From Candidatus Peribacteria bacterium (lineage in GTDB: Bacteria > Patescibacteriota > Gracilibacteria > Peribacterales > Peribacteraceae), in contig CP082927.1 in assembly GCA_023038255.1 (NCBI GenBank), positions 18,436-82,435 on the forward strand: 64,000 bases of DNA, in the 5' to 3' direction. A program made the position numbers and the translations under genes. Below, in pieces: positions 11,212-53,574 of the stretch. Each line of letters begins with the position of its first letter. Position 1 is the stretch's first letter. Below the pieces are notes generated by a model that saw only the letters and a program-made list of their open reading frames with translations, was not told the origin of the DNA and searched no databases.

Positions 11212-11246
11212 GGGTTATGGGTGATTGGTTATGGGTTATGGGGTTT
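11212..11246. repeat. tandem heptamer array GGGTTAT GGGTGAT TGGTTAT GGGTTAT GGGGTTT
   Basis: Read directly. Begins 2 nt after the stop at 11210. Confidence 0.85.
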
Positions 11247-11259
11247 TGGAATTCCCCCT

Positions 11260-11700
11260 TTATTTCTTGATGTGTTTACGCCTGATACTGCTTTTGTGAA
11301 TGTGGGGGTCGAAGCCTGGCAAGCGCTCTACGGCATACGGAAGATCATCGTCGGTGATGCCGGGTGGCAGCTTCTGATCATAGCCCAGGAGAATCAGATC
11401 CGGATGGATCTCGCGAACCGGCTTCAGAAAATCCTCACCGTCTCCCAGAATGACATGCGCCGCAGGGAATGCGTTTGCAATCGCGTCCTTGCGGGCATCT
11501 TCGGTTTGTAACGGCGCACGGCCTTTTATTTTCAACACATTGCTATCGCGCGCAACAATCACGTACAAATCCCCTCTCTTGGATGCCTCTGTCAAAAGGA
11601 AGAGGTGGCCGGGATGGAGATCGTCGAATGTGCCGCTTACAAGAATGCGCATAACAGAATCATAGTCGAAAACTTTGGAATCCGCGCACATCTTTCTCAT
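11260..11700 (-). CDS. cytidylyl/adenylyltransferase-family protein (RibL-like FAD synthetase candidate)
   Basis: ILVSGTFDDLHPGH is the (T/H)xGH nucleotidyltransferase motif; ~130-146 aa. ATG 11652 is an alternative start. Confidence 0.7.
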   Translation of the reverse strand: MRKMCADSKVFDYDSVMRILVSGTFDDLHPGHLFLLTEASKRGDLYVIVARDSNVLKIKGRAPLQTEDARKDAIANAFPAAHVILGDGEDFLKPVREIHPDLILLGYDQKLPPGITDDDLPYAVERLPGFDPHIHKSSIRRKHIKK

Positions 11701-11704
11701 TGTT

Positions 11705-11739
11705 CCCCATAACCCATAACTGGTAACCCATAACCAATT
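11705..11739. repeat. heptamer array of the GGGTTAT family, G-rich on the minus strand
   Basis: CCCCATAACCCATAACTGGTAACCCATAACCAATT. Inverted relative to 11212-11246. Confidence 0.85.
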
Positions 11740-11740
11740 C

Positions 11741-11749
11741 TGCTATACT
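11741..11749 (+). promoter_or_regulatory. extended -10 box TGCTATACT, 10 nt upstream of ATG 11760
   Basis: Read directly. Confidence 0.4.
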
Positions 11750-11759
11750 GATACGAAAC

Positions 11760-12005
11760 ATGCACATCCTCACAAAACTCTACCGTCTGCCTTTCGTCCG
11801 CAATATTGCCGGTGCCGCCTTCGGTATGGCAGTCGCGCTTGTGCTCTATGGCGTATACGGCGTCGGCAGCAGGGTTGTTGCAGCGTTGATTCCAGTGGAC
11901 GCCCCATCAGAACAGAACAATGATGTGAATGAGGAAGGCGCGAGGAATGCCAAACTGATAGAGACTGCATTGCGTGCAAAAAAGATTGCAGAGGAGGTAC
12001 ACTGA
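11760..12005 (+). CDS. small membrane protein, unknown function
   Basis: 81-aa ORF with one hydrophobic helix, 5 nt upstream of pilD. Confidence 0.4.
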   Translation: MHILTKLYRLPFVRNIAGAAFGMAVALVLYGVYGVGSRVVAALIPVDAPSEQNNDVNEEGARNAKLIETALRAKKIAEEVH

Positions 12006-12010
12006 GCGGC

Positions 12011-12772
12011 ATGTCCGCCATCTTCCTGGATCCCATTGTCGCCATCCCGCTCCTGGCCATTCTCGGTCTGGTGTTTGGAAGTTTCGGGAACGTGCTGATG
12101 GATCGCGTCACCTCGGAAAAAAGTATGGGAGGGCGGTCGCACTGCATGAGTTGTCATCGCATTCTCACGCCGTGGGAACTGGTGCCGGTCATCAGTTTTT
12201 GTGCACTGCGCGGCAAGTGCTATCAGTGCAAAGCACAGATTCCCTGGGAATACACACTCATTGAATTACTCGGTGGTGCGCTCTTTGTGGTTGCCGGCAT
12301 GCTCACATCGTATGCGCTGCTGCCTGCACTCTTTCTTGCGCTTGCACTCTGGTCCATGCTCCTCATCGGCATTGTCGATGCCCGCACGCAGCTTATCCCC
12401 GATCTCCTGACAGCCGTCCTCGGATTGAGCGCGCTTCTCTATCACGTCTTTCTCGGTGATGTTGTCTGGACCGGCGCCCTTCTTGCGTTCGCGTTTTTCG
12501 GGCTGCAGTGGGCCCTCAGCCGCGGCCACTGGGTTGGCAGCGGTGATATTCTCCTCGGCATCGCACTCGGGCTCCTGCTTGGCCCCTGGCAATACGTAGT
12601 GGTGATGTTAATGGGTGCATACATTGTCGGCGCCCTTCTTGTTTCCGTCTTACTCGGACTCGGGTCCATCTCCCGCACACAGCATATCGCCTTCGGGCCG
12701 TTCCTGGTCGTGGGCACAGTCATCTCGCTGTTGTTTGGGGAGGTGATCTTACGGGTAGTGTGGCCAATGTAA
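12011..12772 (+). CDS. pilD: prepilin peptidase (A24 family)
   Basis: Cys-rich N-domain CMSCHRILTPWELVPVISFCALRGKCYQCKAQI followed by a polytopic A24-like core. Confidence 0.85.
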   Translation: MSAIFLDPIVAIPLLAILGLVFGSFGNVLMDRVTSEKSMGGRSHCMSCHRILTPWELVPVISFCALRGKCYQCKAQIPWEYTLIELLGGALFVVAGMLTSYALLPALFLALALWSMLLIGIVDARTQLIPDLLTAVLGLSALLYHVFLGDVVWTGALLAFAFFGLQWALSRGHWVGSGDILLGIALGLLLGPWQYVVVMLMGAYIVGALLVSVLLGLGSISRTQHIAFGPFLVVGTVISLLFGEVILRVVWPM

Positions 12773-12910
12773 AAAAAATCGGACTCACTCATGGAGAGGA
12801 GCCCGATAATATTCTACGCCAGTCGTGAGGCCACTAAGGGCTGTTCGCTGGCGATGAGCTTCTATTCTCTTCGGGAGGACAGGAGTTCACCGCCAAGAAC
12901 GATGACTGAC
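12771..12910 (-). ncRNA. candidate ~140-nt structured RNA, class unknown
   Basis: Minus-strand TTGACA-16 nt-TAGAAT promoter and an intrinsic terminator: stem 12780-12786 / 12799-12805 with a G-U pair that forms only on the minus strand, then U8. 5' and 3' ends can pair. No convincing ORF. Confidence 0.35.
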
Positions 12911-12916
12911 GAGGTA

Positions 12917-12944
12917 ATTCTATGGGTTTTTGGCAATTTGTCAA
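12917..12944 (-). promoter_or_regulatory. sigma70-like promoter TTGACA-16-TAGAAT for the candidate RNA
   Basis: -35 at 12939-12944 and -10 at 12917-12922, read as reverse complement. Confidence 0.5.
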
Positions 12945-12958
12945 CTATTTTGTACACT
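12930..12958 (+). promoter_or_regulatory. sigma70-like promoter TTGGCA-17-TACACT (TG-extended) for smpB
   Basis: -35 at 12930-12935 and -10 at 12953-12958. Overlaps the divergent promoter. Confidence 0.45.
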
Positions 12959-13006
12959 GTTTCACGCACAGAAACTCCCCTACACTGCCATTCTGCAATT
13001 TCCCCT

Positions 13007-13447: not shown

Positions 13448-13495
13448 GGATATTTTCTCTGGCTCTTCCCCTTCCCTTCGCCCTATTCTCTTCTC

Positions 13496-14092: not shown

Positions 14093-14139
14093 AAATGGCC
14101 CCTTTCGAGGCCTGGGTTCTTTCTTCCTCACCTGTGCTG

Positions 14140-14908: not shown

Positions 14909-14946
14909 AAAACCCAATCACCAATTTCCAATAACCAATAACCCGC
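14909..14946. repeat. heptamer array AACCCAA TCACCAA TTTCCAA TAACCAA TAACCCG (GGGTTAT family, minus orientation)
   Basis: Fills the receiver-pilB spacer. Confidence 0.8.
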
Positions 14947-27514: not shown

Positions 27515-27589
27515 TGGAGCCGCTTGTCGGATTTGAACCGACGACCTACTCATTACAAGTGAGTTGCTCTACCACTGAGCTAAAGCGGC
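27515..27589 (-). tRNA. tRNA-Thr (anticodon UGU), CCA encoded
   Basis: Cloverleaf folded by hand: acceptor GCCGCUU/AAGCGGC, anticodon loop CUUGUAA, T-loop UUCAAAU. Confidence 0.9.
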
Positions 27590-27771: not shown

Positions 27772-28147
27772 GTTCTGCTCTTTGATGATCGCCCCAATCC
27801 AGCCTCGGCTGAGATTGTGGGAGGAACGTCCGGACTCCACTGAAACGCCATGCGGCTAACGGCCGTCGCCTCGATATAATCCATAAAATCGGGGTAGGAC
27901 AAGTGCCACAGAGACGATCCCCTTTAGTGGGGAGTGAAACGCCACGGAGTACCGTGGATTGTGCAACACACGTGTATGCATAATCGGTAAACTCATGGTG
28001 GAGCAAGGAGGAATTGGGTTTTTGGAATCAGTGATGGTTTCGTCACTCCATCTACCCCTCCGCATCGAGGTATCCAGGCAACTGGTACCCCAGAGAGATG
28101 ATCATCCACTCGCAAGAGTGACAGAATCCGGCGTACAAGAGCAGGAT
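27772..28147 (+). ncRNA. rnpB: RNase P RNA, bacterial type
   Basis: Conserved GAGGAACGUCCGGACUCC, AAGUGCCACAGAGACGA and ACAGAAUCCGGCGUACAAG. P1 pairing of 27772-27782 with 28137-28147. Confidence 0.85.
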
Positions 28148-28153
28148 AAAGCA

Positions 28154-29860: not shown

Positions 29861-29886
29861 AATCTCATTCCTCATTCCTCAATCTT
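29861..29886. repeat. heptamer array AATCTCA TTCCTCA TTCCTCA ATCTT, left arm of an inverted repeat
   Basis: 29868-29885 is the exact reverse complement of 30252-30269. Confidence 0.85.
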
Positions 29887-29903: not shown

Positions 29904-30239
29904 ATGAAGAACCTCGATCGCATCGTCGCCGGCGTCTGCGGACTTATTCTCCTGATTGTTGCTGTGCAGAGCCTGTTCCCGCGCGCCTATGTACCGGCTC
30001 CGCCACCACCTCCGCAGGAGATTGGTACCTGTACGGGTGAGCCCATCCTCGTGGACTTTGCATTCACAGGGGGCGTGAACGAGCCGTGGACCTGCCGCGA
30101 ACAGTGCGACGACAATGAGCCGCGCTATATTCTGTATACGAACGGTCGCGCAACACAGTGTGAAACGCCGCCGGGATGTAATGACACGGGGGAGGACAAC
30201 AATATCACCTGCGTGCCGCCGGTGAAATCGGTGGAGTAA
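29904..30239 (+). CDS. small exported Cys-rich protein
   Basis: 111 aa, N-terminal hydrophobic helix, PPPPP linker, 7 Cys in the mature part. Confidence 0.5.
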   Translation: MKNLDRIVAGVCGLILLIVAVQSLFPRAYVPAPPPPPQEIGTCTGEPILVDFAFTGGVNEPWTCREQCDDNEPRYILYTNGRATQCETPPGCNDTGEDNNITCVPPVKSVE

Positions 30240-30247: not shown

Positions 30248-30270
30248 GTTGAGATTGAGGAATGAGGAAC
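30248..30270. repeat. right arm of the inverted repeat (GAGATTGAGGAATGAGGAAC)
   Basis: See 29861-29886. Confidence 0.85.
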
Positions 30271-32975: not shown

Positions 32976-32996
32976 GGAGGGAGGATAGCAGATAAT

Positions 32997-33072
32997 GGTT
33001 ATGGGAAATCAGTTATGGGTTATGGGAACCTATAAGAGACCCCATAACCCATATTCCCATAACTCATAACCC
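32997..33072. repeat. palindromic pair of heptamer arrays forming a long hairpin
   Basis: Perfect 12-bp core ATGGGTTATGGG (33015-33026) / CCCATAACCCAT (33041-33052), plus imperfect outer pairing. Confidence 0.8.
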
Positions 33073-34352: not shown

Positions 34353-34388
34353 AGGATGAGGGGTTAAGATTGAGGGATGCGGGTTGGT
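34353..34388. repeat. heptamer-like array GGATGAG GGGTTAA GATTGAG GGATGCG GGTTGGT abutting the nusA start
   Basis: Read directly. Mixes both heptamer flavours. Confidence 0.6.
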
Positions 34389-35699: not shown

Positions 35700-35754
35700 A
35701 GTAGTAAATTAATATAATTTCAGTATTTTGTCAAATAGGTCTACAATCGGGCCT

Positions 35755-36414
35755 ATGAAAGCGATTTTCCTGAACTTTGCAAGCAATAACTCTTCTCCGG
35801 AGGCAGAAGCCTGCTTTGCGCTTGTGACTGAAGAAAAGACGGTTGCCTACACCCCCGTGGATCACCGTATTGGCGACAGTGGATTGATGCCCTTACTCGA
35901 AGAAACCCTGCAAAAGGCCGGTTGGACCTACAAAGACCTCACACATATCGCCTGTATAGTCGGTCCGGGCGGATTTACCAGTCTGCGCATGGCGGCATCA
36001 CTGGCTAATGTCATCGCTGATCAGTTGAAGATCCCCGCTACAGGCATTCATCTGTCTGATTTGTACTACGTACGATCTAAGAACCCCAATAACCAATCAC
36101 CAATCACCAATAACCCATTCATCTGGTTTCATTCTACAAAGAAAACGGATGTCTTTGTTCGTACATTCGGCATTGAAGAGTCGCCCTGGGAAGATCCAAC
36201 ACTCGTTCCCGTCGCAGATCTTGCAGCCCATAGCTCGCAGCTCGCAGCGTCGTCCTGGAGCGGCGAACTCATCCCCGACCATCGCATCATCATCGATTCA
36301 TTCTCGTTACAGCCCGCAACACTACAGCCCGTTGCAGATATTCTTCCTGCATTTCTCGCACCCCAAACCTACGGTACAGGCTTGCTGCAGCCGTGGTATG
36401 GGAGAGGATGGTGA
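35755..36414 (+). CDS. tsaB: tRNA t6A biosynthesis protein TsaB (YeaZ family)
   Basis: IACIVGPGGFTSLRMAASLANVIA motif. ATG 35755 lies 7 nt after TACAAT. Confidence 0.7.
   Translation: MKAIFLNFASNNSSPEAEACFALVTEEKTVAYTPVDHRIGDSGLMPLLEETLQKAGWTYKDLTHIACIVGPGGFTSLRMAASLANVIADQLKIPATGIHLSDLYYVRSKNPNNQSPITNNPFIWFHSTKKTDVFVRTFGIEESPWEDPTLVPVADLAAHSSQLAASSWSGELIPDHRIIIDSFSLQPATLQPVADILPAFLAPQTYGTGLLQPWYGRGW
36082..36117. repeat. heptamer array inside tsaB (AACCCCA ATAACCA ATCACCA ATCACCA ATAACCC)
   Basis: In frame; encodes NPNNQSPITNNP. Confidence 0.8.
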
Positions 36415-37464: not shown

Positions 37465-40221
37465 ATGGCTATTCTCGATTCCCTCAACAAACTCCTCGGC
37501 GACCCGAACGAAAAAGAACTCAAGAAAATCCGCCCTGTGGTTGCAGAGGTGAGAGCATTCGAAAAGCGTCCGGAGATCCGCGCCCTGACTCTGGCCGATT
37601 TGCCTGCAAAGACTGAAGAACTCAAAAAGAAAATTGCGGATGGCATGACACTCGATCAGATTCTGCCGGAGGCATTCGCCGTCGCCATCCGTGCCTGTGA
37701 ACTGCTGGTTGGCCACAAGGAAATAATCGGGCGTCAGGAATTTGTGTGGAATATGGTGCCGTTTGATGTGCAGATTCTGGGAGGAGCGGCGCTGCACAAA
37801 GGCATGATTGCAGAAATGAAAACAGGAGAAGGAAAGACGCTCGTGTCTACATTGCCGGTGTATCTCAATGCTCTCAGTGGCAAAGGCGTCCACGTTGTGA
37901 CGGTGAACGACTACCTCGCAAAGCGCGACAGCCAGTGGATGGGAGTGCTCTACAAGGCACTCGGTCTCACGGTTGGTGTCGTCGTCCATGGCATTAACAC
38001 CGAAGACCGCCGCGCCGCCTACGCATCAGACATTACCTACGGAACCAACAACGAATACGGGTTTGATTACCTGCGCGACAACATGGTGAGCAGCATCAAG
38101 CAGCAGGTGCAGCGCGGACTAAACTTCGCCATTGTGGATGAAGTAGACTCGATTCTCATCGACGAAGCCCGCACCCCCCTCATCATCAGCCAGCCGGCGG
38201 AGGAATCCACAACCAAGTACATGCAGTACGCGATGCTTGTAAAAAACCTGCAGGAGAATGTGCACTACACGAAAGATGAAAAGCAGCGTGCAGCGGTGTT
38301 GAGTGATGAAGGAATCAAGAAAATGGAAGAGCTTCTCAATGTGGAAAATATCTACACCGAGAAAGGATTCGAAGAAGTGCATCACATCGAACAGGCGCTC
38401 CGCGCGCATGCCATTTATCAGCGTGATGTCGATTACGTGGTCTCGAACAACGGCGAAATCGTGATCGTCGATGAATTTACCGGACGTCTGATGCCGGGCC
38501 GCCGCTACAGCCACGGTCTGCATCAGGCGATTGAAGCGAAAGAAGGGGTGGAAGTGCAGCGCGAATCAAAAACACTCGCAACCATCACGTTCCAGAACTA
38601 CTTCCGTTTGTACAAAAAACTCGCCGGTATGACCGGTACCGCAAAGACGGAAGAAGAGGAATTTGAATCCATCTACAAGCTCCGCGTACTCGTCGTGCCC
38701 ACACACCGCCCGATGGTCCGCGACGACCGTTCCGATGCCATCTATCGCACTGTGTCTGCGAAATTCAAAGCTGTCGCAAAGCTCGCAAAAGAGAAAAATG
38801 CACTCGGTCAGCCGGTGCTCATCGGCACAACATCCATCGAAAAATCCGAAGTCCTCTCGCTTCTCCTTAAGCAGGAAAATGTGCCGCACCAGGTGCTCAA
38901 CGCCAAGCATCATGAACAGGAAGCAGAGATTGTCGCCGGAGCCGGACAGAAAGGATCAGTGACGATTGCGACCAACATGGCCGGTCGTGGAACAGATATC
39001 AAACTCGGTGACGGTGTGCAGGACCTTGGTGGTCTCGCGATTCTCGGAACAGAACGTCATGAATCCCGCCGCATTGATAACCAGCTCCGCGGTCGCGCCG
39101 GACGCCAGGGTGATCCGGGAGAGTCTCAGTTCTTTGTGTCCATGGAAGATGATCTCATGCGTTTGTTTGGTGGTGACCGTCTGAAGATGATGATGGAACG
39201 TCTGAATGTGCCGGAAGATGTGCCGCTGCAAAACGGTATGGTCAGCCGCAGTATTGAAGGTGCGCAGAAGCGCGTGGAAGGACATCACTTCGACACCCGT
39301 AAACACGTGCTCCAGTACGACGACGTCATGAACAAGCATCGTGCGCTTATTTATAAGCGGAGGCAGAAGATTCTCGAGAAGATCGACGAACAGGTTATGG
39401 GTGATGGGTTATCGGTTATGGGAAACGAAAATGCTGATGGATCGTTGCATGAAGATATTCTGCGTTCTATCAAAAAAGAAGGACGCAATATTGTCATGAC
39501 ACATGCGGTCGGACAGGATCCGGATCAGTGGGCTATTGAAAAAATTGTCGATGAATTAAGTGGTCTGCATCCGCAGTTCAGAGAGATTCTCAGTGAAGCA
39601 AAACTGAAGACATTTGTGGAGCAGGAAAAAATGGCAGACGCCGTCGAGCAGGCGCTCGGATCGTTCTACGACATCAAGTGCAAAGAGAGTGGCGAAGACA
39701 TTGTGGCGCAGGCAGAACGCGTCATCACCCTGCGTTCCATTGATACGCACTGGATGGATCACATCGATGACATGGCACATCTGCGCGAACAGGTGGCCTT
39801 TGCCGGCTACGCCCAGCGTGATCCGGTCATTGAGTATCAGGACCAGGGCTTCCGCCGCTTCCAGAGTCTGCTGAATAACATCGAAAGCGCAATTGTGCGC
39901 GCCATTCTCCAGGTTGATTTTGCCCAGTTCGCGCCGCGCCAGATTCTTGAGCAGGCCGAACAGGATCTTGCAGGTCTCACCACGAACGAAGCACAGATTG
40001 AAGGAGAGCTCGACCAGACCGGTGTCGGTGCGCTCAATGTTCTGAATGAGAATAACCAGAACACGATGCTCGGGCAGGCGGTCCGTCAGCAGCTCGGTGG
40101 CCAGCAGCGCGTCACAACTCCGCAGGCAAAGCCTTTGTCATCGGAGAAAGTCGGACGCAATGATCTGTGCCCGTGCGGCAGCGGGAAGAAGTACAAGAAG
40201 TGTCACGGACAGGACGAATAA
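37465..40221 (+). CDS. secA: preprotein translocase ATPase SecA
   Basis: MKTGEGKT Walker [30 protein letters not shown]-terminal [14 protein letters not shown] zinc finger. Confidence 0.95.
39393..39423. repeat. heptamer array inside secA (GGTTAT GGGTGAT GGGTTAT CGGTTAT GGG)
   Basis: In frame; encodes [10 protein letters not shown]. Confidence 0.8.
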
Positions 40222-40531: not shown

Positions 40532-42043
40532 ATGAAAATGTTCCTCTCTTCATCTGCCATCGCAAGTCTCGTATTGTCTGCCATCGCTTTCTTTCCGCCG
40601 ACACAAGCAAGCGCACTTAGCTGTATGCAGGCTCCCCCCTTTACAGAGGCCGTTGCACAAGCAGAAATCATTCTGGAAGTGATGCCGTTGCAGCTTGCTT
40701 CAACAGAGGAGATATCGTTCCACTGGGATGTAAAAGTGCTGAAGACGTATAAAGGCGATGTGACGGTTGGTGCGAGAGTGCAGGTGATAGAAAGCGTCTG
40801 GCCTTCCACGAAGGATTATCAGTCCGCTCTTCATGAGGAAGAGCCGATGCTCCTCTTCCTCCGTGCCAGTAAAATACCTGACACATTTATTTACGGCCTC
40901 TGTGACTTTACGAGCCGCTCTCTGGTCGAAAAGCCGCTGACTGCGGAGGAGAAAAAGATTCTCAACGCAGCATCAACAGACGACACATGCCAGCCTTATG
41001 TCTGTAAGGACGGCACTACACATGCGCGTTGTGCAGCAGATGGAACCGTCATCAATTACTTTGCACCAGTGTGTCTGACACATGGCGGGGATGCAGAAGC
41101 GTCTGGGTTCACCGATGTATCAGCGACTCATGCGAATGCAGATGCCATCGCGTATGTGAAGGCAGAAGGTATTGTCTCCGGTTATGCTGATGGAACGTAT
41201 CGGCCGGATCAGACTATCAATCGCGCAGAGTTCACAAAAATCATCACTGTCGCGCTGTACGGGCAGGCAATGATCGACCAATGTGGATCTTTCTATCCTT
41301 TTTCCGACGTCCCGCGCGATGCATGGTACGTGAAACATGTCTGTCGTGCGCGTGATGGCTGGCTCTTGAGTGGTTATCCGGACAATACCTTCCGCCCCGC
41401 GCAGAATATTAACTTTGTAGAGGCAGCAAAAATTCTGGCAAACGGCTATAACCTGATTCATCGCGAAGAGCACTGCAACGGCAAGCTCTGCCCCGATGTC
41501 GATACAGTGGACCATCCGTGGTATGAGCAATACGTCCGTGCTCTGGCTGCTGAAAATGCCATTCCTTTCTCTATTGTCGGTCTGAATCAGGCGATCACCC
41601 GCGGGGAAATGGCGGAGATCATTTATCGTTTGAAGACGAAAAATACCGACAAGCCATCACGGACATATAACTATCTCCTTGGATTAATGGAAACATCCGG
41701 CGAAGACGACAGTGTTCGCAGAGATGATAAGCGAAGTTCAGATGTGAACAGTATTCTCAGCGCGATCCGTTTCTACGCTCTTGATCACAATGGATCATTG
41801 CCATCAGGAATTCCTTTGAATGAATCCCTGGAAATTTGCAGCGATACTGAATGTGATTCTTCTTTTGTGGAGCTTCAAGTGCTGGTTGGAACCTATCTTC
41901 CTGCCATTCCTCAAGATCCGCTCATTACAAGTCAGGCAGAGACTTTCTACTTTATCTCCCGTGACAACGCCGGATATGTCACTATTTCTGCGCCGCATGC
42001 AGAGTCAAGGGTAGTGAGTGTTACGTTGTCCGTTGGTAATTAG
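40532..42043 (+). CDS. secreted SLH-domain protein with C-terminal pilin-head-like domain
   Basis: Signal peptide, SLH repeats (FTDVSATHANADAIAYVKAEGIVSGYADGTYRP; FSDVPRDAWYVKHV...SGYPDNTFRP). The last ~105 aa align to the local pilins. Confidence 0.7.
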   Translation: MKMFLSSSAIASLVLSAIAFFPPTQASALSCMQAPPFTEAVAQAEIILEVMPLQLASTEEISFHWDVKVLKTYKGDVTVGARVQVIESVWPSTKDYQSALHEEEPMLLFLRASKIPDTFIYGLCDFTSRSLVEKPLTAEEKKILNAASTDDTCQPYVCKDGTTHARCAADGTVINYFAPVCLTHGGDAEASGFTDVSATHANADAIAYVKAEGIVSGYADGTYRPDQTINRAEFTKIITVALYGQAMIDQCGSFYPFSDVPRDAWYVKHVCRARDGWLLSGYPDNTFRPAQNINFVEAAKILANGYNLIHREEHCNGKLCPDVDTVDHPWYEQYVRALAAENAIPFSIVGLNQAITRGEMAEIIYRLKTKNTDKPSRTYNYLLGLMETSGEDDSVRRDDKRSSDVNSILSAIRFYALDHNGSLPSGIPLNESLEICSDTECDSSFVELQVLVGTYLPAIPQDPLITSQAETFYFISRDNAGYVTISAPHAESRVVSVTLSVGN

Positions 42044-42094
42044 GGTATCGTTTTACGGAGTTTTGGATGTAAGTCTGTGCTAGACTTATCCCCC

Positions 42095-43060
42095 ATGTCT
42101 CCCCAAAAAATAATCGGCCATGCCCGCCAGCTTGCGGAACTTGCAGCGGATATTGAAAGCAAGAATATCGCGCACGCGTACTTGTTTGCGGGAACGCCGA
42201 ACCTCGGAAAGACAACGGTGGCGCAGTGGTTTGCGCGTGAGCTTTTGACGGAGGGAAAAACGCACGAGGAAAAAGAGGAGATTGATCACCAGATTCTGCA
42301 CATGATCCATCCGGATCTGATGGTGCTGGATCAGCTGTGGATTGAAGACAAATGCGAAGACTGGGATGTCATCGCACGTTCAAGCAATGTACCCCAGCAG
42401 CATCGCGCAAAGGCACCTGCCATGCGGACGGATGTCATTGGGATCGACGACGTACGCGAGATCCAGAGCCGCTTGCAGGAGACGGGAAACGGTCAGTATC
42501 GCTTCTGTCTTATTCGCGGCATCGAACGTATGCAGGACGCTGCGGTGAATGCGCTCCTGAAGACGTTGGAAGAGCCGCCGCCCGGACGCATTTTTCTGCT
42601 CACGACAGACTCACTCCAGACCGTACTTCCCACTATCCTCTCGCGATCCCGCGTGATCCGATTCCAGCGCGTCTCCGATCGGGACGTCGCAACACTGCTT
42701 GAAGAAACAGAGGAAGAGGATCGCCGGTTTATTCTGCACCTCGCACAGGGCGCCCCCGGCCGCGCGATCCGCCTGGCCAATGATCCCGATGCACTGCGTG
42801 AAGAGAAGCAGTTCCATCAGCAGGCGATGTCGTTCTGGAATACATCGTCCCCCATCGATCGCATGATGGCGCTGACACCGCTGCACGAACGTGGGGCAGA
42901 GTCCGAACGGTTCCTGTTTCACCTCGCACTCGCGCTCCGGGAGAAAGGTGAGTACACGCATGCACAGCAAAAAGCGTTAAATGAGCTTGTGGAAGGACTT
43001 CGGACAAATGCGAGCCGTCCGCTTATGACAGAGCATTTTGCGACCCAAATCGCCCAATAA
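42095..43060 (+). CDS. holB: DNA polymerase III delta' subunit
   Basis: AHAYLFAGTPNLGKTT, LLKTLEEPP, SRSRVIRF. ATG 42095 lies 8 nt after TGCTAGACT. Confidence 0.8.
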   Translation: MSPQKIIGHARQLAELAADIESKNIAHAYLFAGTPNLGKTTVAQWFARELLTEGKTHEEKEEIDHQILHMIHPDLMVLDQLWIEDKCEDWDVIARSSNVPQQHRAKAPAMRTDVIGIDDVREIQSRLQETGNGQYRFCLIRGIERMQDAAVNALLKTLEEPPPGRIFLLTTDSLQTVLPTILSRSRVIRFQRVSDRDVATLLEETEEEDRRFILHLAQGAPGRAIRLANDPDALREEKQFHQQAMSFWNTSSPIDRMMALTPLHERGAESERFLFHLALALREKGEYTHAQQKALNELVEGLRTNASRPLMTEHFATQIAQ

Positions 43061-43111
43061 TCCCGTATTTTTGAGTATCTTTGGGAGATTTTCCCCTATA
43101 ATCGTCGCTCT

Positions 43112-44398
43112 ATGGATATTCGGTATCACATCACAGGCGGTATTCCTTTGCAGGGCGAAGTGACGATCAGTGGATCAAAAAATGCAGCCTTGCCGCTTAT
43201 TGCCGGATCAGTGCTCGTGAGTGGCATCACTGTGCTCCACAACGTTCCACGTCTGCGTGATACAGAAACCCTCCTGAAAATTCTCGAATTCCTCGGTGCC
43301 ACGACGCATTTTGAAAACGGTACCGCCACCATCGATACCACCAAACTTGAAAGCAAACCGATCCCGTCCGAGCTTGTCTCCAAGCTGCGCGGCGCCATTG
43401 TGCTTCTGGGTCCGCTCCTCGCACGCTTCGGTGTTGTTGAAATGTCCTATCCGGGTGGATGTGTGCTCGGCAAGCGTCCGGTTGAGGCGCATGTGCTGGC
43501 TCTCATGCAGATGGGTGCGGAGAACATGAGTACCTCGGATGTCATTCACCTCCAGGGGAAACTCCAGCCGAGCCGCATCATCATGCCCGCTTTTTCTGTC
43601 ACCGCGACAGAGATCGCGATTTGGGCTGCAGCCGCAACGGTCGGCGAGACGCGCATCGACATTGCCACCGCTGAGCCCCACGTACAGGCTGTCTGCCGTA
43701 TGGCGCAGGAGATGGGTGCAAGAGTGGAGGGAATCGGCACGAACACGCTTATCATCCACGGAGTCGGCCACCTGCGTGCGGTTGAATTCCGTGTGCCGTT
43801 TGATTATCTGGAAGCAGGATTGTTCGTTATTGCCGCTCTCGTCACAAAAGGAAAGCTGAGACTCCGCGATGTTGATGCCAATGACCTGATTGTCTTTCTC
43901 GACACTATCCGCCGCGCCGGGGGGCTCTGGAAATATGATCCCGCAGAGCGTGTGCTGTTTGTGGATGGCGAGCTCTCTATTCTCCAGTCGATGAAAGTGC
44001 AGACCGGTATTCACCCCGGCTTCCCAACGGACTTACAGGCCCCTATGGGAGTGTTGATGACGCAGGCAAAGGGGGTGAGCCGTATTTTTGAATGTATCTT
44101 TGAGGGGCGCATGGCGTATCTGTACGAACTGGAAAAGATGGGTGTGCACATGGAAATCCTCAATGCCCATCAGGCGCTTATTATCGGTCCTACACCTCTC
44201 AAAGGCCGCACCGTTGCATCCAATGATATCCGTGCCGGTGCCGCTATGGTCCTTGCCGGGCTCTGCGCAGAAGGCCGCACCATTGTGACAGACGTGCATT
44301 ACATTGAGCGTGGTCACGACAGGCTCGACGAGAAGCTGCGCAGCGTCGGGGCTAAAATCGATCGCGTCGTGGTCGATGCACCTCCGCCCCAGTCGTAA
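43112..44398 (+). CDS. murA: UDP-N-acetylglucosamine 1-carboxyvinyltransferase
   Basis: ISGSKNAALPLIAGSVL, YPGGCVLGKRPV (catalytic Cys loop), 428 aa. Confidence 0.95.
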   Translation: MDIRYHITGGIPLQGEVTISGSKNAALPLIAGSVLVSGITVLHNVPRLRDTETLLKILEFLGATTHFENGTATIDTTKLESKPIPSELVSKLRGAIVLLGPLLARFGVVEMSYPGGCVLGKRPVEAHVLALMQMGAENMSTSDVIHLQGKLQPSRIIMPAFSVTATEIAIWAAAATVGETRIDIATAEPHVQAVCRMAQEMGARVEGIGTNTLIIHGVGHLRAVEFRVPFDYLEAGLFVIAALVTKGKLRLRDVDANDLIVFLDTIRRAGGLWKYDPAERVLFVDGELSILQSMKVQTGIHPGFPTDLQAPMGVLMTQAKGVSRIFECIFEGRMAYLYELEKMGVHMEILNAHQALIIGPTPLKGRTVASNDIRAGAAMVLAGLCAEGRTIVTDVHYIERGHDRLDEKLRSVGAKIDRVVVDAPPPQS

Positions 44399-44452
44399 GC
44401 CCCCGTATTTTCCCTAGCCCAAACCCTCACCCTCACCCTACAATCTATACAT

Positions 44453-44989
44453 ATGGCACAACTGACTTTCTCTCTCGTTGGCGGCTCCACCCTGAAGTGT
44501 TCCGGTGGTCCTATGCCCTTCACCGTCTTTCCGGACAAAGTCCAGAGCGGCGTCCTGAATCTTTTGCCGTCTCCGCAGGAAAGTCCCAGCCGCGAAATCA
44601 TTTCCTGGCCGGGTGAGTACGATATTGCCGGCATCACCGTGCGCGGTATTGGCCAGAACGAAGGTCAGAAAGTATCGTATGTACTCGACATCGACGATAT
44701 CCGCTTTGCCTTCCCTGCGTCTCCGCTCGAAGACTGGCGCGATGAAGACATCGAACGCATGGGCGAGGTCCATGTGCTTGTTCTTCCTGCAGAAGACCCC
44801 AAGAAATGCCAGGCGCTCCTGGATGAAGTGGACCCGCGCGTTCTGTTCATTGTGCCCGGCAGCGACGGCAGTCTGAATCCGGATATGCTCAAGTCCTGCG
44901 GCGCAGCGGACAAAGAGCATGTAAAGGAATTCAAGCTGAAGGGAGCCTTTGGCGCTGAAGGACGTGAGGTTGTGGTCTTCAGTAATTAA
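44453..44989 (+). CDS. hypothetical protein
   Basis: 178-aa ORF. TACAAT lies 8 nt upstream of the ATG. No diagnostic motif. Confidence 0.5.
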   Translation: MAQLTFSLVGGSTLKCSGGPMPFTVFPDKVQSGVLNLLPSPQESPSREIISWPGEYDIAGITVRGIGQNEGQKVSYVLDIDDIRFAFPASPLEDWRDEDIERMGEVHVLVLPAEDPKKCQALLDEVDPRVLFIVPGSDGSLNPDMLKSCGAADKEHVKEFKLKGAFGAEGREVVVFSN

Positions 44990-45029
44990 GCATCGACGCA
45001 TTCAGAGGAATTACCTATCCTTTTGCCAT

Positions 45030-45104
45030 GCCCCTGTAGTTCAACGGATAGAACAGTCCCGTCCTAAGGGATAGATATTGGTTCAATTCCAGTCGGGGGC
45101 ACCA
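45030..45104 (+). tRNA. tRNA-Arg (anticodon CCU), CCA encoded
   Basis: Hand-folded: acceptor GCCCCUG/CGGGGGC, anticodon loop GUCCUAA, T-loop UUCAAUU. Confidence 0.9.
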
Positions 45105-50442: not shown

Positions 50443-50523
50443 CGGGATTTAACCATAGAATGTGGCTTTATTTCAATGAAAAAGACGCTCTCCGCACGTT
50501 GTTATTTCCTCTGATACACTTCT

Positions 50524-51060
50524 GTGGTGAATCACTTCATTGCATTCTTACGCGGCATCAATGTGGGTGGCAACAAGAAAGTGCCGATGGCGGATCTAAA
50601 AATAATGTTTGAGACAATGGGATATACGAATATCCGGACACTCCTCAATAGCGGCAATGTCCTCTTCGATGCAGATGAAACATCCGCCTCTCTTCTTGCA
50701 GAAGCGATTGAAGCACAGATGGAACAGACATTCGGCTTTGGTGCGCATACCATCATCCGCACGCTTGATGAGATGCAGGCACTCGTGCAGTCGAATCCGT
50801 TTAAGGGTATCAGGGTTACACCTGCAATGCGTCTCTACATCACTTTTCTCACCGATAAGCCGACGGGCAAGCTGAAGATTCCGTACGAGTCGCCGGACAA
50901 GCTCTTCAAAATCCTTGCCGTCACCGATTCACATATTTGCAGCGTACTAACGGTGACCGACACAAAGAATACGACCGATGCGATGGGGATTCTGGAGAAG
51001 GAATACGGGAAAAACGTGACGACGCGGAATTGGAATACGGTGGAGAAAATGCTGATCTAA
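50524..51060 (+). CDS. DUF1697-family protein
   Basis: FLRGINVGGNKKVPMADLK...NIRTLLNSGNVLF signature. GTG start. Confidence 0.75.
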   Translation: MVNHFIAFLRGINVGGNKKVPMADLKIMFETMGYTNIRTLLNSGNVLFDADETSASLLAEAIEAQMEQTFGFGAHTIIRTLDEMQALVQSNPFKGIRVTPAMRLYITFLTDKPTGKLKIPYESPDKLFKILAVTDSHICSVLTVTDTKNTTDAMGILEKEYGKNVTTRNWNTVEKMLI

Positions 51061-51294
51061 CGGCACAGGAGATAGTGACAGCCTTATTTGAAGGGGGTAT
51101 AAACATGCTAACGAGTTCCTGTCCTTCAATGCGGGGAGCCGTGAATTCCACAATGTTTCGGATCGTTCCTTGGGCTACAAGAGTAAAACTATGACTAGTC
51201 ATAGAATTGCATCTCGAACACCTCTCGTGACCGATCTCTATGCCAGGATCCTGGCACTAACATTAAAGAGTCTCCCCCGGACAGGAACTCTTTT

Positions 51295-51678
51295 TTACGC
51301 TGCTTTCATCGGCAAAATCGCAGTCTCTGGATCGTCTGCATCTGCACGGCCCAGGCTGTTGTATTCAAATGTCATGTAGCTCATTAATGTGCCACAGATA
51401 GCATCAATCTCCTGCTGTATTTCTGAAAGCGCATTTGGTTGTGTAGTGGAATCAATCTGAATAATGATTTTGCCGGATGGTCCCCAGGGGGTCGGGAAAG
51501 AGCAGCCACTGACGCCAGAAACGGCAATCACCTGATCATGAATCCTGGTCCACATGTTAAAAATCTCCTCGTCCCGTCTGCGGATATTTGCAGCTATCAC
51601 CTCGGAGCCCAATTCATGTGCTTCACTTCCCAGCATTTCTGCCATCGGAAGCCGTAACTGTGTATCAGGTGACATCAA
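51295..51678 (-). CDS. hypothetical protein
   Basis: 127-aa ORF, no motif recognised. Confidence 0.35.
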   Translation of the reverse strand: MMSPDTQLRLPMAEMLGSEAHELGSEVIAANIRRRDEEIFNMWTRIHDQVIAVSGVSGCSFPTPWGPSGKIIIQIDSTTQPNALSEIQQEIDAICGTLMSYMTFEYNSLGRADADDPETAILPMKAA

Positions 51679-51817
51679 CAGGAAACGCTACTCCAGGAAT
51701 ATGCGTCGCGAAATGGATTCTTTGTGTTCAGCATCCTTCGCATACCACAGCTGTCTTCCGTAAAAACTTCAAGCATTTTTTCGCCCCGACTTTCCGTTTC
51801 TGGTAGAGTGTAGCACT

Positions 51818-53545
51818 ATGAAACGCACCGCCCTCTTTCTTGGTTTACTCGCCCTTCCTGTCACGACGTTCGCACTGGATTTTTCCAATGCAACGAGTCA
51901 GTACAAAGATGCACCGTTCTCCACTGCGGAGACTGCAGGCATCAGCGTGTTGACCAATCTGACGGCTGTGACTGGTAACCCGGATGGGACCTTTGCGCCA
52001 AACCGCATCGTGAACCGTGCGGAGTTTTTGAAGATCCTCTTCAAGAGCCACCCCGATATTCTTGTCACGGACAATGACGCCTCCGCCTGTTTTCCCGATG
52101 TCCGCAAAAATGACTGGTTCAGCAGCTACGTATGTCTCGCAAAAACCAGGAAAGTAGTGGGCGGATATCCGGATGGATTCTTCCGTCCAGCCAACCCCGT
52201 GAACTATGCCGAAGCACTGAAAATGCTGTCCGAGCTCTACAGTCCGTACCCGGTTGTGTGTCTGGATGAAGGCGCACGCGGCGAATGTTCACAATACAAA
52301 ACATACGAAGACGGAGCCCCATGGTATGAGCAATACACTGATTGGGCTGTGTCCGAAGGTCTCATGATTCCTGGTGGACCGGCAATTGCTGCACCTCTGA
52401 CACGCGGACAGGTGGCGCGCCTCGCTGCATCATACCGCGCATGGTTCGATGGTGAATTGGCTCAGTACCGCGACTTTGAACGCGGCAAGACACCGGCTTC
52501 ATCCAGCAGCTCTGTATCGTCTCAATCATCAAGTTCCTCGTCATCGGTCTCCTCCTCTTCATCTGCATCATCCGTCAGCGTTTCCTCCTCTTCCTCGAGC
52601 AGTGCTGCCATCAAAGAATTCCCTGCAGCCAGCCATTTCCTGCTGACAGGCAAGCGCACGCCCGTGGTGATGGATGGTATCTTCACGAGTCAGTCCGAAG
52701 ACGGGTTGCTGCGTATTGTCGATATCACTCTGCGACAGGAAGTGAAATCCATTGCCAGCATGACGCTCGTGGATGAACAGGGAAAAGACATCGCAACGCT
52801 CACACTCGGAACAGATAACAATGCAGATCGTCGCAAGTGGCGCGCATCTCTTCCGGAGAGCAGCACCTACAAACTGCTGCGTGGTGTGCCTACGCTCCTT
52901 GGTGTGAAATACACGCTCTACGACCGCACGAGCGGCGGTGTGCCGAATGAGTTTGTGGATGGCGTGGAGAAGTTCTCCATCACCCTCAGTGGGGTGGCAA
53001 CCAATGCATCCATTCAGGTTGTGCCGGCAAATACACATTATCCTCAGCACCAGACAAGCGATGCACGCATAACAGGTCTCTCCAATGCAGGATCACCCAC
53101 TGATGTGATGACGCCTGGCACAAAGCGCCTGATCGGTAAGTTTGCGATCAGTGGCCAGACGGCAACAGGCGGCGTACTGCGCGTGACAGGACTGTCGTTT
53201 GTCAGAGAGTCCAATCACATTTCCCTCTCAAACATCCGCATCGGCGGTCCGGCAGAAGTGGAACAGGCAGATTGCGGGATTGATGCGCAAAGTAATCGCG
53301 TGACCTGTGGCGTGATTCCTGAAGGGTATCGCTCCGTCGGTGCCAGTGCACTGATTCTCTCTGTGTTTGCAGATGTCACCATCGACGAAGGGTTCCAGGA
53401 AGGCACGCTCCGGATCACGCTCCCCGGTCGCGGACAGATTGGACAGGTTGGTGCACTCAAATGGGAAGACAGCTCCGGTCGTTACAACTGGATTGAAGCT
53501 GACGTGCCGTTTGAAAGCGGGACGCTGTGGACGGTGAAGCCGTGA
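51818..53545 (+). CDS. SLH-domain surface protein with Ser-rich linker
   Basis: Signal peptide, SLH repeats (GNPDGTFAPNRIVNRAEFLKIL; FPDVRKNDWFSSYV...GGYPDGFFRP), poly-Ser block. Confidence 0.75.
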   Translation: MKRTALFLGLLALPVTTFALDFSNATSQYKDAPFSTAETAGISVLTNLTAVTGNPDGTFAPNRIVNRAEFLKILFKSHPDILVTDNDASACFPDVRKNDWFSSYVCLAKTRKVVGGYPDGFFRPANPVNYAEALKMLSELYSPYPVVCLDEGARGECSQYKTYEDGAPWYEQYTDWAVSEGLMIPGGPAIAAPLTRGQVARLAASYRAWFDGELAQYRDFERGKTPASSSSSVSSQSSSSSSSVSSSSSASSVSVSSSSSSSAAIKEFPAASHFLLTGKRTPVVMDGIFTSQSEDGLLRIVDITLRQEVKSIASMTLVDEQGKDIATLTLGTDNNADRRKWRASLPESSTYKLLRGVPTLLGVKYTLYDRTSGGVPNEFVDGVEKFSITLSGVATNASIQVVPANTHYPQHQTSDARITGLSNAGSPTDVMTPGTKRLIGKFAISGQTATGGVLRVTGLSFVRESNHISLSNIRIGGPAEVEQADCGIDAQSNRVTCGVIPEGYRSVGASALILSVFADVTIDEGFQEGTLRITLPGRGQIGQVGALKWEDSSGRYNWIEADVPFESGTLWTVKP

Positions 53546-53546
53546 C

Positions 53547-53574
53547 GGGTTATTGGTTATGGGTAATGGGGTAC
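53547..53574. repeat. heptamer array GGGTTAT TGGTTAT GGGTAAT GGGGTAC
   Basis: Starts 2 nt after the stop at 53545. Confidence 0.85.

Follow-up and report, generated by a model that had tools for sequence, protein, structure and literature searches.

Heptanucleotide arrays of about four units at gene junctions and in frame within genes of a Peribacteraceae bacterium

The ~1.24 Mb genome of an uncultured member of the Peregrinibacteria (CPR; Peribacteraceae) is dotted, throughout the 64,000-nt window analysed here, with arrays of ~31 bases consisting of four 7-base units of the GGGTTAT type. What are these arrays, how did they arise, and why do they lie where they do? The initial annotation described them as REP-like arrays of 4-5 units at gene boundaries, with G-quadruplex (G4) spacing and no described counterpart.

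Arrays at gene junctions

The family itself is real and non-random. Eight (KGGTKAT)x4+GGG arrays lie where the initial annotation had placed them. When the window was scanned with (NGGTNAT)x4+NGG (22 specified positions), seven of the eight sites scored 20-22/22, the eighth, at 33041, carrying one indel; in 100 second-order Markov simulations, the top score was 17 and 0.2 matches of at least 16 were expected. Tandem Repeats Finder returned period-7 arrays of 3.4-4.4 copies at 11212, 11706, 14914, 32997, 33041, 36086, 39393 and 53547, and a lag-autocorrelation scan of the window, which assumes no unit, gave four clusters at lag 7 (0.07 expected) and one at lag 6, with lags 4, 5 and 8-12 empty. 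Solitary GGGTTAT units occur three times against ~8 expected, so that the single unit noted earlier at 6853-6859 is at chance level. The G-rich strand is the + strand in four arrays and the − strand in the other four. Six of the eight adjoin stop or start codons, as had been claimed, whereas two lie in frame within secA and tsaB.

Array 1 (11212-11243, +; GGGTTAT GGGTGAT TGGTTAT GGGTTAT GGGG; 22/22) begins 2 nt past the stop of a 768-aa ORF (8904-11210, +), and 16 nt separate it from the stop of a convergent cytidylyltransferase gene (11260-11700, −). Array 2 (11705-11736, −; read on that strand, TGGTTAT GGGTTAC CAGTTAT GGGTTAT GGGG; 20/22) ends 4 nt before the first in-frame ATG of the same gene, in the divergent spacer facing a prepilin peptidase gene (12011-12772, +). 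Array 3 (14913-14944, −; GGGTTAT TGGTTAT TGGAAAT TGGTGAT TGGG on that strand; 21/22) occupies the space between a response-regulator stop (14908) and the pilB ATG (14954), with the C-rich strand as the sense strand, while array 7 (53547-53571, +; GGGTTAT TGGTTAT GGGTAAT GGGG), with three units, begins 2 nt past the stop of an SLH-domain protein gene (51818-53545, +) and faces the convergent pyrF, which ends at 53633.

Arrays 4a (32996-33026, +) and 4b (33040-33072, −; one 1-nt indel) are the left and right arms of an inverted pair between nusA (stop 33078, 5 nt from the end of 4b) and a dinG-like exonuclease/helicase gene (start 32975), both encoded on the − strand. As proposed earlier, the pair is predicted to form a hairpin (−42.8 kcal/mol, z = −5.0), and relatives carry compensatory GC-to-AU changes, with three pairs altered on both sides. 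The arms are identical at 63/63 positions between genomes with only 80% DNA identity, and the orthologous arrays of lineages L124 and L250, built of GAGTTAT units without G-tracts, retain both periodicity and hairpin. Of the arrays claimed for both sides of nusA, the downstream pair is robust; the upstream sequence (34353-34388, −), C-rich and abutting the probable nusA ATG (34352), is only weakly 7-periodic in the window, whereas the same position holds clear arrays in L128 (AGGACTT, 9.6 copies) and L124 (TTCGTAT, 4.4 copies).

That leader had been grouped with a GATTGAG/GAATGAG flavour, the other two members of which are short (2.6-3 units). The left arm (29864-29885, +; CTCATTC CTCATTC CTCAATC, ~3 units) ends 18 nt upstream of a 111-aa ORF (29904-30239), and the right arm (30252-30269, −; AGATTGAGGAATGAGGAA) starts 12 nt past its stop; since 30252-30269 is 100% complementary to 29868-29885 over 18 nt, a perfect inverted repeat brackets the ORF. 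The CCCTCA run reported earlier is a genuine hexamer array (44418-44438, −; CCCAAA CCCTCA CCCTCA CCC on the + strand). A TACAAT box and an ATG at 44453 come directly after it, relatives keep it as (CCCTAA)n or (CCCTAG)n, and its G-rich strand is a canonical G4 motif.

Arrays within genes and in relatives

Array 5 (36084-36116, −; 22/22) lies in frame within the tsaB ORF (35755-36414, +), encoding NPNNQSPITNNP in TsaB; the GGTGAT variant in its two middle units eliminates the in-frame TAA that perfect ATAACCC repeats would give. Array 6 (39392-39422, +; 22/22), in frame within the secA ORF (37465-40221, +), encodes 10 residues of the hypervariable SecA linker, an insertion relative to B. subtilis SecA. 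Across 100 homologues, this linker contains lag-7 amino-acid repeats in 18, compared with 1.4 expected. The secA array is identical at 33/33 positions between genomes that share just 80% DNA identity, while in the tsaB loop arrays have been replaced wholesale between relatives. In L124, a secA array at amino acid 892 matches in length the non-repeat sequence that relatives carry there, as if overwritten. Insert sizes relative to empty sites vary (+15, +21, +27, +30, +60 nt).

In the window and the loci of relatives together (168 kb), we found 37 period-7 arrays against 3.3 expected, other periods being enriched about twofold; period 7 is thus specifically over-represented. Array length is capped at ~4.4 units (~31 nt) regardless of unit sequence, the copy-number mode being 4.3-4.4 for units as unlike as GGGTTAT, AAATCCG, AATTGAG, CTAGTAA and GACTTAG. 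Comparison with close relatives, which had been suggested, showed that arrays recur at the same gene junctions and in the same protein loops with quite different, often G-poor units (AAATCCG, AATTGAG, CTAGTAA) of unchanged length, each array being either exactly conserved or replaced as a whole. Although these loci are 90% coding, 15 arrays are intergenic and 14 coding, which makes arrays ~10 times denser in the 10% non-coding DNA, where they sit directly against stop or start codons, ending 4-9 nt before starts or starting 2-5 nt after stops. The coding ones are in frame, in hypervariable surface loops of SecA, TsaB and a family-2 glycosyltransferase. The description 'at gene boundaries' is therefore incomplete: genes themselves house, in frame, two of the window's eight arrays and roughly half of those found at the loci of relatives.

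Each genome holds a few unit families, common to several loci (at least five unrelated ones in L127), and one family may occupy different loci in different genomes: GGAGAYC units are found in tsaB of L123 and at the 3′ end of secA in L124, and AATTGAG units in L124, L127 and L249. In L127 and L249, inverted (GAGAATK)4 arrays bracket a PF05635 gene (23S rRNA intervening-sequence protein, IVP) that the window lacks. No array occurs in the 22.7 kb of lineage L126 that were examined, and strains with 98% nucleotide identity show no copy-number change. A Shine-Dalgarno motif precedes 14 of 120 genes in this clade, the same as in the antisense control, i.e. there is no signal; leaders are C/T-rich, G-poor and apparently very short.

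Relation to known repeats

Counter to the statement that no such element had been described, the window arrays belong to a class of heptanucleotide repeats that already includes STRR, GGGNATC and TAACTGA repeats (PMC4692102, PMC4679880). Its members are widely distributed (in cyanobacteria, Bacteroidota and Planctomycetota, among others), and in an unbiased sample of other phyla we counted 53, 56, 55, 25 and 4 arrays with 2, 3, 4, 5 and 6 units, respectively, i.e. the same cap. Matches to our pattern elsewhere come mostly from filamentous cyanobacteria with GGTAATT, GGTCATT or GGTGATT arrays. The cyanobacterial STRR (short tandemly repeated repetitive) heptanucleotides of Calothrix, Anabaena and Nostoc, reportedly described by Mazel et al. 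in 1990, likewise comprise several families per genome at many dispersed, mainly non-coding loci, but are often far longer (tens of units), with other units and in large multicellular cyanobacterial genomes.

The GGGAATC and GGGGA(C/T)T heptamers of Xanthomonas and Nostoc (Rehm et al. 2015; PMC4692102, which also cites the Calothrix repeats) share with our arrays the tandem 7-nt units with a G-run, the clear preference for four units, the position close to the end of the upstream ORF (~90% intergenic there, with an intragenic minority), the frequent convergent inverted pairs able to form stem-loops, the recurrence at the same gene pairs across related species with turnover of sequence and length, and the lack of a tie to any gene function class. 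They differ in that the unit here is GGGTTAT/TGGTKAT, with G-tracts often just GG and no canonical G4 fit, that the arrays here reside in a 1.2 Mb CPR genome, and that length is more uniform (almost none above 5 units versus up to 26). The in-ORF share is also much larger (2/8 here and about half in relatives versus 7-11%), and it is unusual that some of these arrays lie in frame within essential genes such as secA. TAACTGA arrays (MacGregor 2015; PMC4679880), known from marine Beggiatoaceae, cyanobacteria and Bacteroidetes, resemble ours in forming short sets (2-6 copies, ~170 loci), mostly a few nt upstream of the starts of genes without Shine-Dalgarno sites, with mobility suspected but without a known mechanism; their in-ORF copies occur only at the protein periphery. 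Unlike ours, they have one dominant unit whose forward orientation gives stops in all three frames, whereas here several units coexist in mixed orientation, after stops as often as before starts.

Heptamer repeats within ORFs that yield protein only at frame-keeping copy numbers are otherwise familiar from phase variation, as in neuO of E. coli K1 and the contingency loci of Haemophilus. There, copy number varies between cells or strains and switches surface genes on and off, whereas here strains 2% apart have the same copy number and the in-ORF repeats reside in the essential housekeeping genes secA and tsaB. Another parallel for the siting is offered by the Rickettsia palindromic elements, 100-150 bp palindromes inserted in frame in proteins, and the Borg tandem repeats, which create disordered protein regions (PMC9879509): in both, conserved proteins tolerate in-frame repetitive DNA at sites that are permissive, surface-exposed or disordered, and this DNA turns over fast and independently between lineages. 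The unit of Borg in-ORF repeats is divisible by three; a 7-nt unit gives a 7-amino-acid period only over three units.

Origin of the arrays and competing explanations

We favour, with somewhat more confidence than doubt, the reading that the arrays are heptanucleotide simple-sequence repeats, produced by slippage or template switching and retained only where the site is permissive, and that inverted pairs act as stem-loops. In bacteria, slippage and template switching have a 7-nt bias. Arrays would arise and spread when DNA is replicated or repaired, by strand slippage or by short-patch template switching from one array to another, and would survive only in unconstrained sequence; in a 90% coding genome, such sequence amounts to gene junctions and disordered linkers. 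The cap at ~4 units may stem from instability once misaligned pairing exceeds ~25 nt. Several observations sit uneasily with this account: local slippage leaves unexplained why one unit family occupies many loci of a genome and why families such as GGAGAYC and AATTGAG occupy different loci in different genomes, and it does not account for the all-or-none conservation of the secA array and the hairpin arms. Heptamers inside an essential ORF could not grow unit by unit without frameshifts, and the L124 secA array seems overwritten at unchanged length.

The occurrence of one family at different loci in different genomes and the seeming overwriting in L124 secA would suit a tiny mobile or templated element, in which a lineage-specific enzyme copies ~31-nt blocks, taken from existing arrays or a template, into new sites and inverted arrays are the terminal repeats of small gene cassettes, as the bracketed PF05635 gene might illustrate. 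Near-fixed length agrees with this, as do the array-free stretch of L126, the wholesale replacement in tsaB and the order of variant units common to arrays 2 and 4a (TGGTTAT-GGGnnAn-CAGTTAT-GGGTTAT) and to arrays 1 and 6 (GGTTAT-GGGTGAT-KGGTTAT). We nevertheless consider such an element unlikely, because target-site duplications, terminal inverted repeats inside an array and nearby transposase or reverse transcriptase genes were not seen, insert sizes are uneven, and independent origin at few permissive sites is an adequate alternative. A cis-acting role, in which a single-strand RNA- or DNA-binding protein with a ~7-nt footprint (S1, cold-shock, KH-type, possibly NusA) steers translation initiation or termination, has been proposed for TAACTGA repeats (PMC4679880) and would fit the tight spacing to starts and stops, the clade's lack of a Shine-Dalgarno signal, its C/T-rich leaders, the wholly unstructured C-rich strand (minimum free energy 0 as RNA) and the nucleotide-perfect conservation. 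It appears a rather doubtful general explanation, given the unrelated unit families within one genome, the mixed orientation to transcription (4 versus 4), the in-ORF half of the arrays and the array-free L126.

G4 or i-motif folding of four G-tracts 4 nt apart, which would modulate transcription, termination or translation at gene ends, is the model proposed for GGGNATC repeats (PMC4692102). Position and four-unit preference agree with that work, and four units with GGG/GG runs plus a terminal GGG(G) are the G4 minimum; three of the eight arrays have G4Hunter scores of at least 1.2 (range 0.94-1.52), and the hexamer array is a canonical motif. As a defining property, however, G4 spacing fails: none of the eight heptamer arrays fits G3+L1-7, four G3 tracts are present in two, G-poor units in relatives give arrays of identical length, the GAGTTAT orthologues keep periodicity and hairpin, and only 4 of 55 four-unit arrays of other phyla have four G3 or C3 tracts (the other 51 lack a set of four). 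We regard this explanation as improbable. Extragenic palindromes of the REP/BIME type, or an assembly artefact, could be invoked for copies that are mostly extragenic and include one inverted pair; both are refuted, as single arrays are direct repeats without self-complementarity (fold z-scores −1.5 to +0.5), the arrays are identical in Logan SRR15633504, JGI 3300033569 and JGI 3300033566, which are independent assemblies, and arrays also occur in relatives.

Under the slippage and template-switching reading, most single arrays would probably have no sequence-specific function, while inverted pairs may have been co-opted as stem-loops, as in the strong hairpin after nusA and the brackets around small genes. 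The persistence of arrays at orthologous junctions of a streamlined genome hints at function, and the nucleotide-perfect secA array and hairpin arms, in genomes 80% identical, suggest that constraint or homogenisation acts on them.

The heptanucleotide array family and its class

Eight sites in the window carry a genuine family of heptanucleotide arrays and read as the initial annotation had described them: arrays 1 (11212-11243, +), 2 (11705-11736, -), 3 (14913-14944, -), 4a and 4b (32996-33026, + and 33040-33072, -; an inverted pair between nusA and a dinG-like gene), 5 (36084-36116, -), 6 (39392-39422, +) and 7 (53547-53571, +). Tandem Repeats Finder called arrays with a 7-nt period at 11212, 11706, 14914, 32997, 33041, 36086, 39393 and 53547, with 3.4-4.4 copies each and 4.3-4.4 in seven of them. 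The pattern (NGGTNAT)x4+NGG matched 20-22 of its 22 specified positions at seven sites, compared with a maximum of 17 in 100 second-order Markov simulations, and the eighth site deviates from it by a 1-nt indel. Lag-autocorrelation, which assumes no unit, yielded four clusters at lag 7 in the window against 0.07 expected; lag 6 gave a single cluster, and lags 4, 5 and 8-12 gave no cluster. The shared build is KGGTKAT x4 capped by GGG(G), 31-33 nt long, with three units in array 7. The G-rich strand is the + strand for four arrays and the - strand for the other four, and is mixed relative to transcription. Because three independent assemblies carry identical arrays, these are not assembly artefacts.

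Other members proposed for the family fared less evenly. The lone unit at 6853-6859 is at chance level, as solitary GGGTTAT occurs three times in the window versus about eight expected. The CTCATTC/GAATGAG pair is short, yet its members make up an 18-nt inverted repeat without mismatch around a 111-aa ORF, while 34353-34388 is only weakly periodic. The run at 44418-44438 is a true hexamer array.

The likeness to REP elements had to be abandoned, since the folding of single arrays is on a par with that of shuffled sequences (z -1.5 to +0.5), their C-rich strand yields a minimum free energy of 0 kcal/mol, and they lack the stem-loop of a REP/BIME-like palindrome. The proposed hairpin of the inverted pair 32996-33072 was borne out (-42.8 kcal/mol, z = -5.0). 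Quadruplex-type spacing, also suggested initially, found little backing when predicted: none of the eight arrays contains the canonical G3+L1-7 motif, two have four G3 tracts, solely with an 11-nt loop, and G4Hunter scores range from 0.94 to 1.52. Judged by motif, the arrays do not appear convincingly quadruplex-forming. MITEs, defined by terminal inverted repeats and target-site duplication over 50-500 bp, are likewise rejected, as the arrays are direct repeats of 25-33 nt without target-site duplication in the flanks or in comparisons of occupied with empty sites. No transposase, such as the RAYT (Y1) enzyme that accompanies REP/BIME palindromes, was found among about 20 window ORFs scanned against profile libraries, and a scan for consensus promoters and terminators around arrays 1-3 returned nothing at the arrays.

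Repeats with a 7-nt unit have been on record in bacteria since 1990 and have spread to hundreds of loci there. The initial remark that no described element with this unit was known does not make the family an undescribed one: heptanucleotide tandem arrays are already a described class (PMC4692102, PMC4679880). Rehm et al. 2015 reported about 185 Xanthomonas loci with GGGAATC and GGGGA(C/T)T repeats, which also occur in Nostoc, identified no function for them and attributed the four units to a requirement for four G-tracts (PMC4692102); the Calothrix heptanucleotides, the short tandemly repeated repetitive sequences (STRR) of cyanobacteria, are cited there. MacGregor 2015 described 169 sets of TAACTGA repeats in 2-6 copies, the majority just ahead of the start codons of genes without Shine-Dalgarno sites, with copies within ORFs confined to the protein periphery (PMC4679880). 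For a general excess of heptanucleotide repeats across prokaryotes and for the idea of polymerase slippage, both refer to Mrazek et al. 2007. The window units resemble this class (STRR, GGGNATC and TAACTGA) in being head-to-tail, with period 7 above chance and above other periods, and in that one unit family is dispersed over many loci (eight in the window). As with the GGGNATC repeats, four units are favoured (7/8), and the arrays are mainly intergenic (6/8), lie near the upstream ORF end and include one inverted pair; unlike them, they lack four uninterrupted G3 tracts fitting G3+L1-7 (0/8), and their unit is KGGTKAT rather than GGGAATC or GGGGA(C/T)T. The repeat class is already known, and the KGGTKAT unit and the phylum (CPR) are new.

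A genome-collection scan was run with GGTNATNGGTNATNGGTNATNGG, a loose pattern that matches the classic cyanobacterial STRR and informs on the distribution of the class, not on close relatives; among the matches listed, filamentous cyanobacteria predominate, accompanied by Bacteroidota, Planctomycetota, Acidobacteriota, Verrucomicrobiota, Chloroflexota and one Saccharibacteria. A metagenome scan with GGGNNANNNGTTATGGGTTATGGG shows that the GGGTTAT unit is not unique to the clade: among the matches listed were unrelated contigs, many with eukaryote-like TTTAGGG telomeric arrays containing TTATGGG variants. These TTTAGGG-type contigs (L133-L135, L146, L165, L170, L202, L223 and others; arrays of as many as about 700 copies) most likely derive from telomeres or subtelomeres of eukaryotes (algae) and have no relation to the bacterial arrays.

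Location of the arrays and their fate in relatives

The proposed association with gene boundaries holds for six of the eight arrays, which are intergenic and lie 2-5 nt past stop codons or 4-9 nt ahead of start codons; arrays 5 (36084-36116) and 6 (39392-39422) depart from it, being in frame inside genes. The loci examined are 90% coding and contain 15 intergenic versus 14 coding arrays, an about ten-fold density excess in non-coding DNA. Array 6 encodes a 10-residue peptide in secA, and array 5 encodes NPNNQSPITNNP in tsaB. The middle two units of the latter are the GGTGAT variant, which removes from the frame the TAA of perfect ATAACCC repeats and thereby suggests that the array is translated.

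Relatives were compared in the secA neighbourhood, up to 10 kb on each side. SecA is 88% identical to that of the window in L124 and L250, 87% in L123, 86% in L126, 82% in L251, 80% in L128 and 79% in L127; homologues at 70-77% identity are named Candidatus Peribacteraceae or Peregrinibacteria and the same protein occurs on contigs of 1.24-1.25 Mb, and the window is therefore part of a small CPR genome. Two strains, L122 and L249, share 98.1-98.9% nucleotide identity with the window over collinear stretches. In the window together with L123, L124, L126, L127 and L128 (168 kb), 37 period-7 arrays were found against 3.3 expected, other periods being at about twice expectation. The GGGTTAT-type family is scattered over eight arrays in the 64-kb window and another five in L123. 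L126 lacks heptamer arrays throughout the 22.7 kb around secA, where about six would be expected at the density of the others; together with its 'empty' tsaB loop, this suggests that the process which generates the arrays is absent from this lineage or has been lost in it.

The SecA peptide sits in a hypervariable linker, is an insertion relative to B. subtilis SecA and is missing from three homologues at 86-88% identity. Across 100 Peregrinibacteria SecA homologues, 18 show lag-7 runs of at least three identical residues in the linker versus 1.4 expected, with lags 3-6 and 8-12 at chance; a period of seven amino acids is the product expected when a 7-nt repeat is translated. The same protein loops repeatedly hold coding arrays whose units differ by lineage: the SecA linker contains GGTTATG in the window and L123, AAATCCG in L127, GACTTAG in L128 and GTTGAGG/GTGGGGT in L251; the TsaB loop contains CCAATAA in the window, GGAGATC in L123, an inverted pair in L127, CACCAGC in L128 and a 13-bp palindrome in L124; and a loop of a family-2 glycosyltransferase contains GGTTATG in L123, GGTTACT/GGTTTTT in L124, AGCCGCC in L128 and two arrays in L251. 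The L124 palindrome, a perfect inverted repeat in frame in tsaB (8880-8925; GTAAAGACGTCCG CAT CGGACGTCTTTAC), occupies the exact position where other lineages have heptamer arrays.

Some arrays are perfectly kept. In genomes that share 80% identity over their alignable DNA, the secA array is 33/33 identical and the hairpin arms 63/63; the tsaB array, in contrast, is replaced wholesale between relatives. The nusA-dinG hairpin also occurs in L123, L124 and L250, where three of its base pairs differ in both partners; two of these, in the inner stem, have gone from GC to AU. These compensatory changes are real, but supportive rather than decisive, because a shift of units from GGG to GAG across the L124 and L250 genomes could partly account for them. 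The array that follows the gene for an SLH-domain protein and faces pyrF is retained in L123 and L124, having lost all G-tracts in the latter. Every array has the same sequence and copy number in L122, L249 and the window, with 420 substitutions and 10 indels separating L122 from the window over 22.4 kb; a phase-variable contingency repeat is not supported, as copy number does not differ between strains at this level of identity.

Units and unit order are also shared between loci. GGAGAYC occurs in tsaB of L123 and at the secA 3' end of L124, AATTGAG in L124, L127 and L249, and the internal order of variant units is common to arrays 2 and 4a, and to arrays 1 and 6. In the 3' region of secA, L124 has an array of GACGGGA x4.1 (12675-12703, amino acid 892; window about 40120-40150) that equals in length the non-repeat sequence of three relatives (15/30 nt identical, no gap), which looks like in-place overwriting, not insertion. 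Insertion of a fixed-size block is ruled out by insert sizes that vary relative to empty sites. Besides the inverted arrays that bracket the 111-aa ORF in the window, inverted (GAGAATK)4 arrays flank a PF05635 gene (23S rRNA intervening-sequence protein, IVP/Avd-like) between holB and aroA in L127 and L249; this gene is absent from the window. The L249 copy lies inside an 85%-identity segment and the L127 copy at the same position. That 4-kb segment of L249 (13744-17720; window about 41209-45049) is apparently a recombination import, the rest of the strain being 98.3-98.9% identical.

Origin of the arrays

In the best-supported reading, the arrays are heptanucleotide simple-sequence repeats, and their periodicity, length cap, location, stability and hairpin conservation are all observed. 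We infer that slippage or template switching would generate them and that the cap near four units may arise because misaligned pairing beyond about 25 nt turns recombinogenic. They would persist solely where sequence may vary, surviving in intergenic bases and disordered protein loops because the genome is so compact, and inverted pairs would serve as stem-loops.

The four-unit cap is general and independent of quadruplex potential. In the window and its relatives the modal length is 4.3-4.4 copies regardless of unit: GGGTTAT in the window and L123; GAGTTAT, TTCGTAT, AGAATTG and GACGGGA in L124; AATTGAG, CTAGTAA, ACCTACA and a perfect AAATCCG x4.4 in L127; and AGGACTT and CACCAGC in L128. Because the cap holds for G-poor units, quadruplex formation does not explain it. 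The same follows from other phyla, where period-7 arrays outside the search pattern, in the loci of the GGTNATNGGTNATNGGTNATNGG matches listed, number 53, 56, 55, 25 and 4 for 2, 3, 4, 5 and 6 units, respectively, and only 4 of the 55 four-unit arrays contain four G3 or C3 tracts. Quadruplex folding as a general explanation is accordingly rejected, with no motif fit among the eight window arrays and 51 of these 55 lacking such tracts.

Slippage leaves several observations unexplained, namely the occurrence of one unit family at many loci, and at different loci in each genome; the shared variant-unit order (arrays 2/4a and 1/6); the all-or-none conservation (secA and the hairpin arms versus tsaB); the frameshifts that unit-by-unit heptamer growth would cause in an essential ORF; the unchanged length of the L124 secA array at amino acid 892; and the small genes bracketed by inverted arrays (the 111-aa ORF and the PF05635 gene). 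These observations would also suit a trans-acting binder that recognizes the arrays, which we consider unlikely; several unrelated units coexist in each genome, which argues against one specific binder. Taken together, the G-independent cap, the recurrence in the same loops and the perfect conservation or whole replacement suggest homogenization or block copying rather than simple slippage. Shared families, variant order, all-or-none conservation, overwriting and brackets all favour a block-copying or homogenizing process that spreads the arrays; as an alternative to simple-sequence repeats we nevertheless hold it to be quite improbable. The same low odds apply to its more specific form, a Peribacteraceae-specific copy-and-paste activity (short-patch template switching or an enzyme) that would write genome-specific heptamer arrays of ~31 nt into permissive DNA.

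If such copy-and-paste did operate, its targets would repeatedly include the same surface loops of essential proteins, some overwritten at unchanged length; new linker peptides would arise, small gene cassettes would gain inverted brackets, the four-unit quantum would be a property of the process and not of G-quadruplex folding, and the explanation of the Xanthomonas and Nostoc repeats would need revision. The present case adds a phylum, the CPR, whose genomes are tiny, densely coded and represented by many sequenced close relatives, so that gain, loss and replacement of single arrays can be traced. It combines three notable features, a G-independent cap at ~31 nt, in-frame recurrence in the same loops of essential proteins and all-or-none conservation, which, if confirmed genome-wide, would make the clade a good system for mechanism discovery.

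Leaders and neighbouring elements

The upstream regions of 120 called genes (locus L001 and the secA neighbourhoods L123, L124, L126, L127 and L128) are C/T-rich and G-poor and carry no Shine-Dalgarno signal, an SD-like motif preceding 14 of the 120 genes, the same as in the antisense control. A TACAAT or TATAAT box precedes the ATG of several genes by about 8-12 nt (e.g. window 44436-44452 and 35738-35754), which suggests leaderless or very short-leader mRNAs. With leaders apparently this short and no Shine-Dalgarno signal, unstructured arrays beside start codons could matter for initiation.

The hexamer array ahead of a 178-aa ORF is retained in relatives as (CCCTAA)n or (CCCTAG)n. Orthologous to window 44418-44438 are (CCCTAA)4-5 arrays in L123 (16744-16770), L124 (15286-15314) and L249 (16945-16973), exactly complementary to TTAGGG, the telomere repeat of vertebrates; their G-rich strand is the template strand, and they lie beside a TACAAT box.

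Rfam returned no family at any array, its only matches in the window being RNase P RNA and two tRNAs. In heterocystous cyanobacteria, STRR are found inside the RNase P RNA gene; unlike there, the window gene (27773-28150, +; bacterial class A, 143 bits) has no heptamer array. It is adjoined by tRNA-Thr(TGT) (27515-27589, -), and tRNA-Arg(CCT) lies at 45030-45104 (+). Just upstream of array 1, the 3' end of a 768-aa ORF without a Pfam hit contains a tandem repeat with a 27-nt period (11128-11188; 2.4 copies, 78% match), which would encode a 9-residue peptide repeat.
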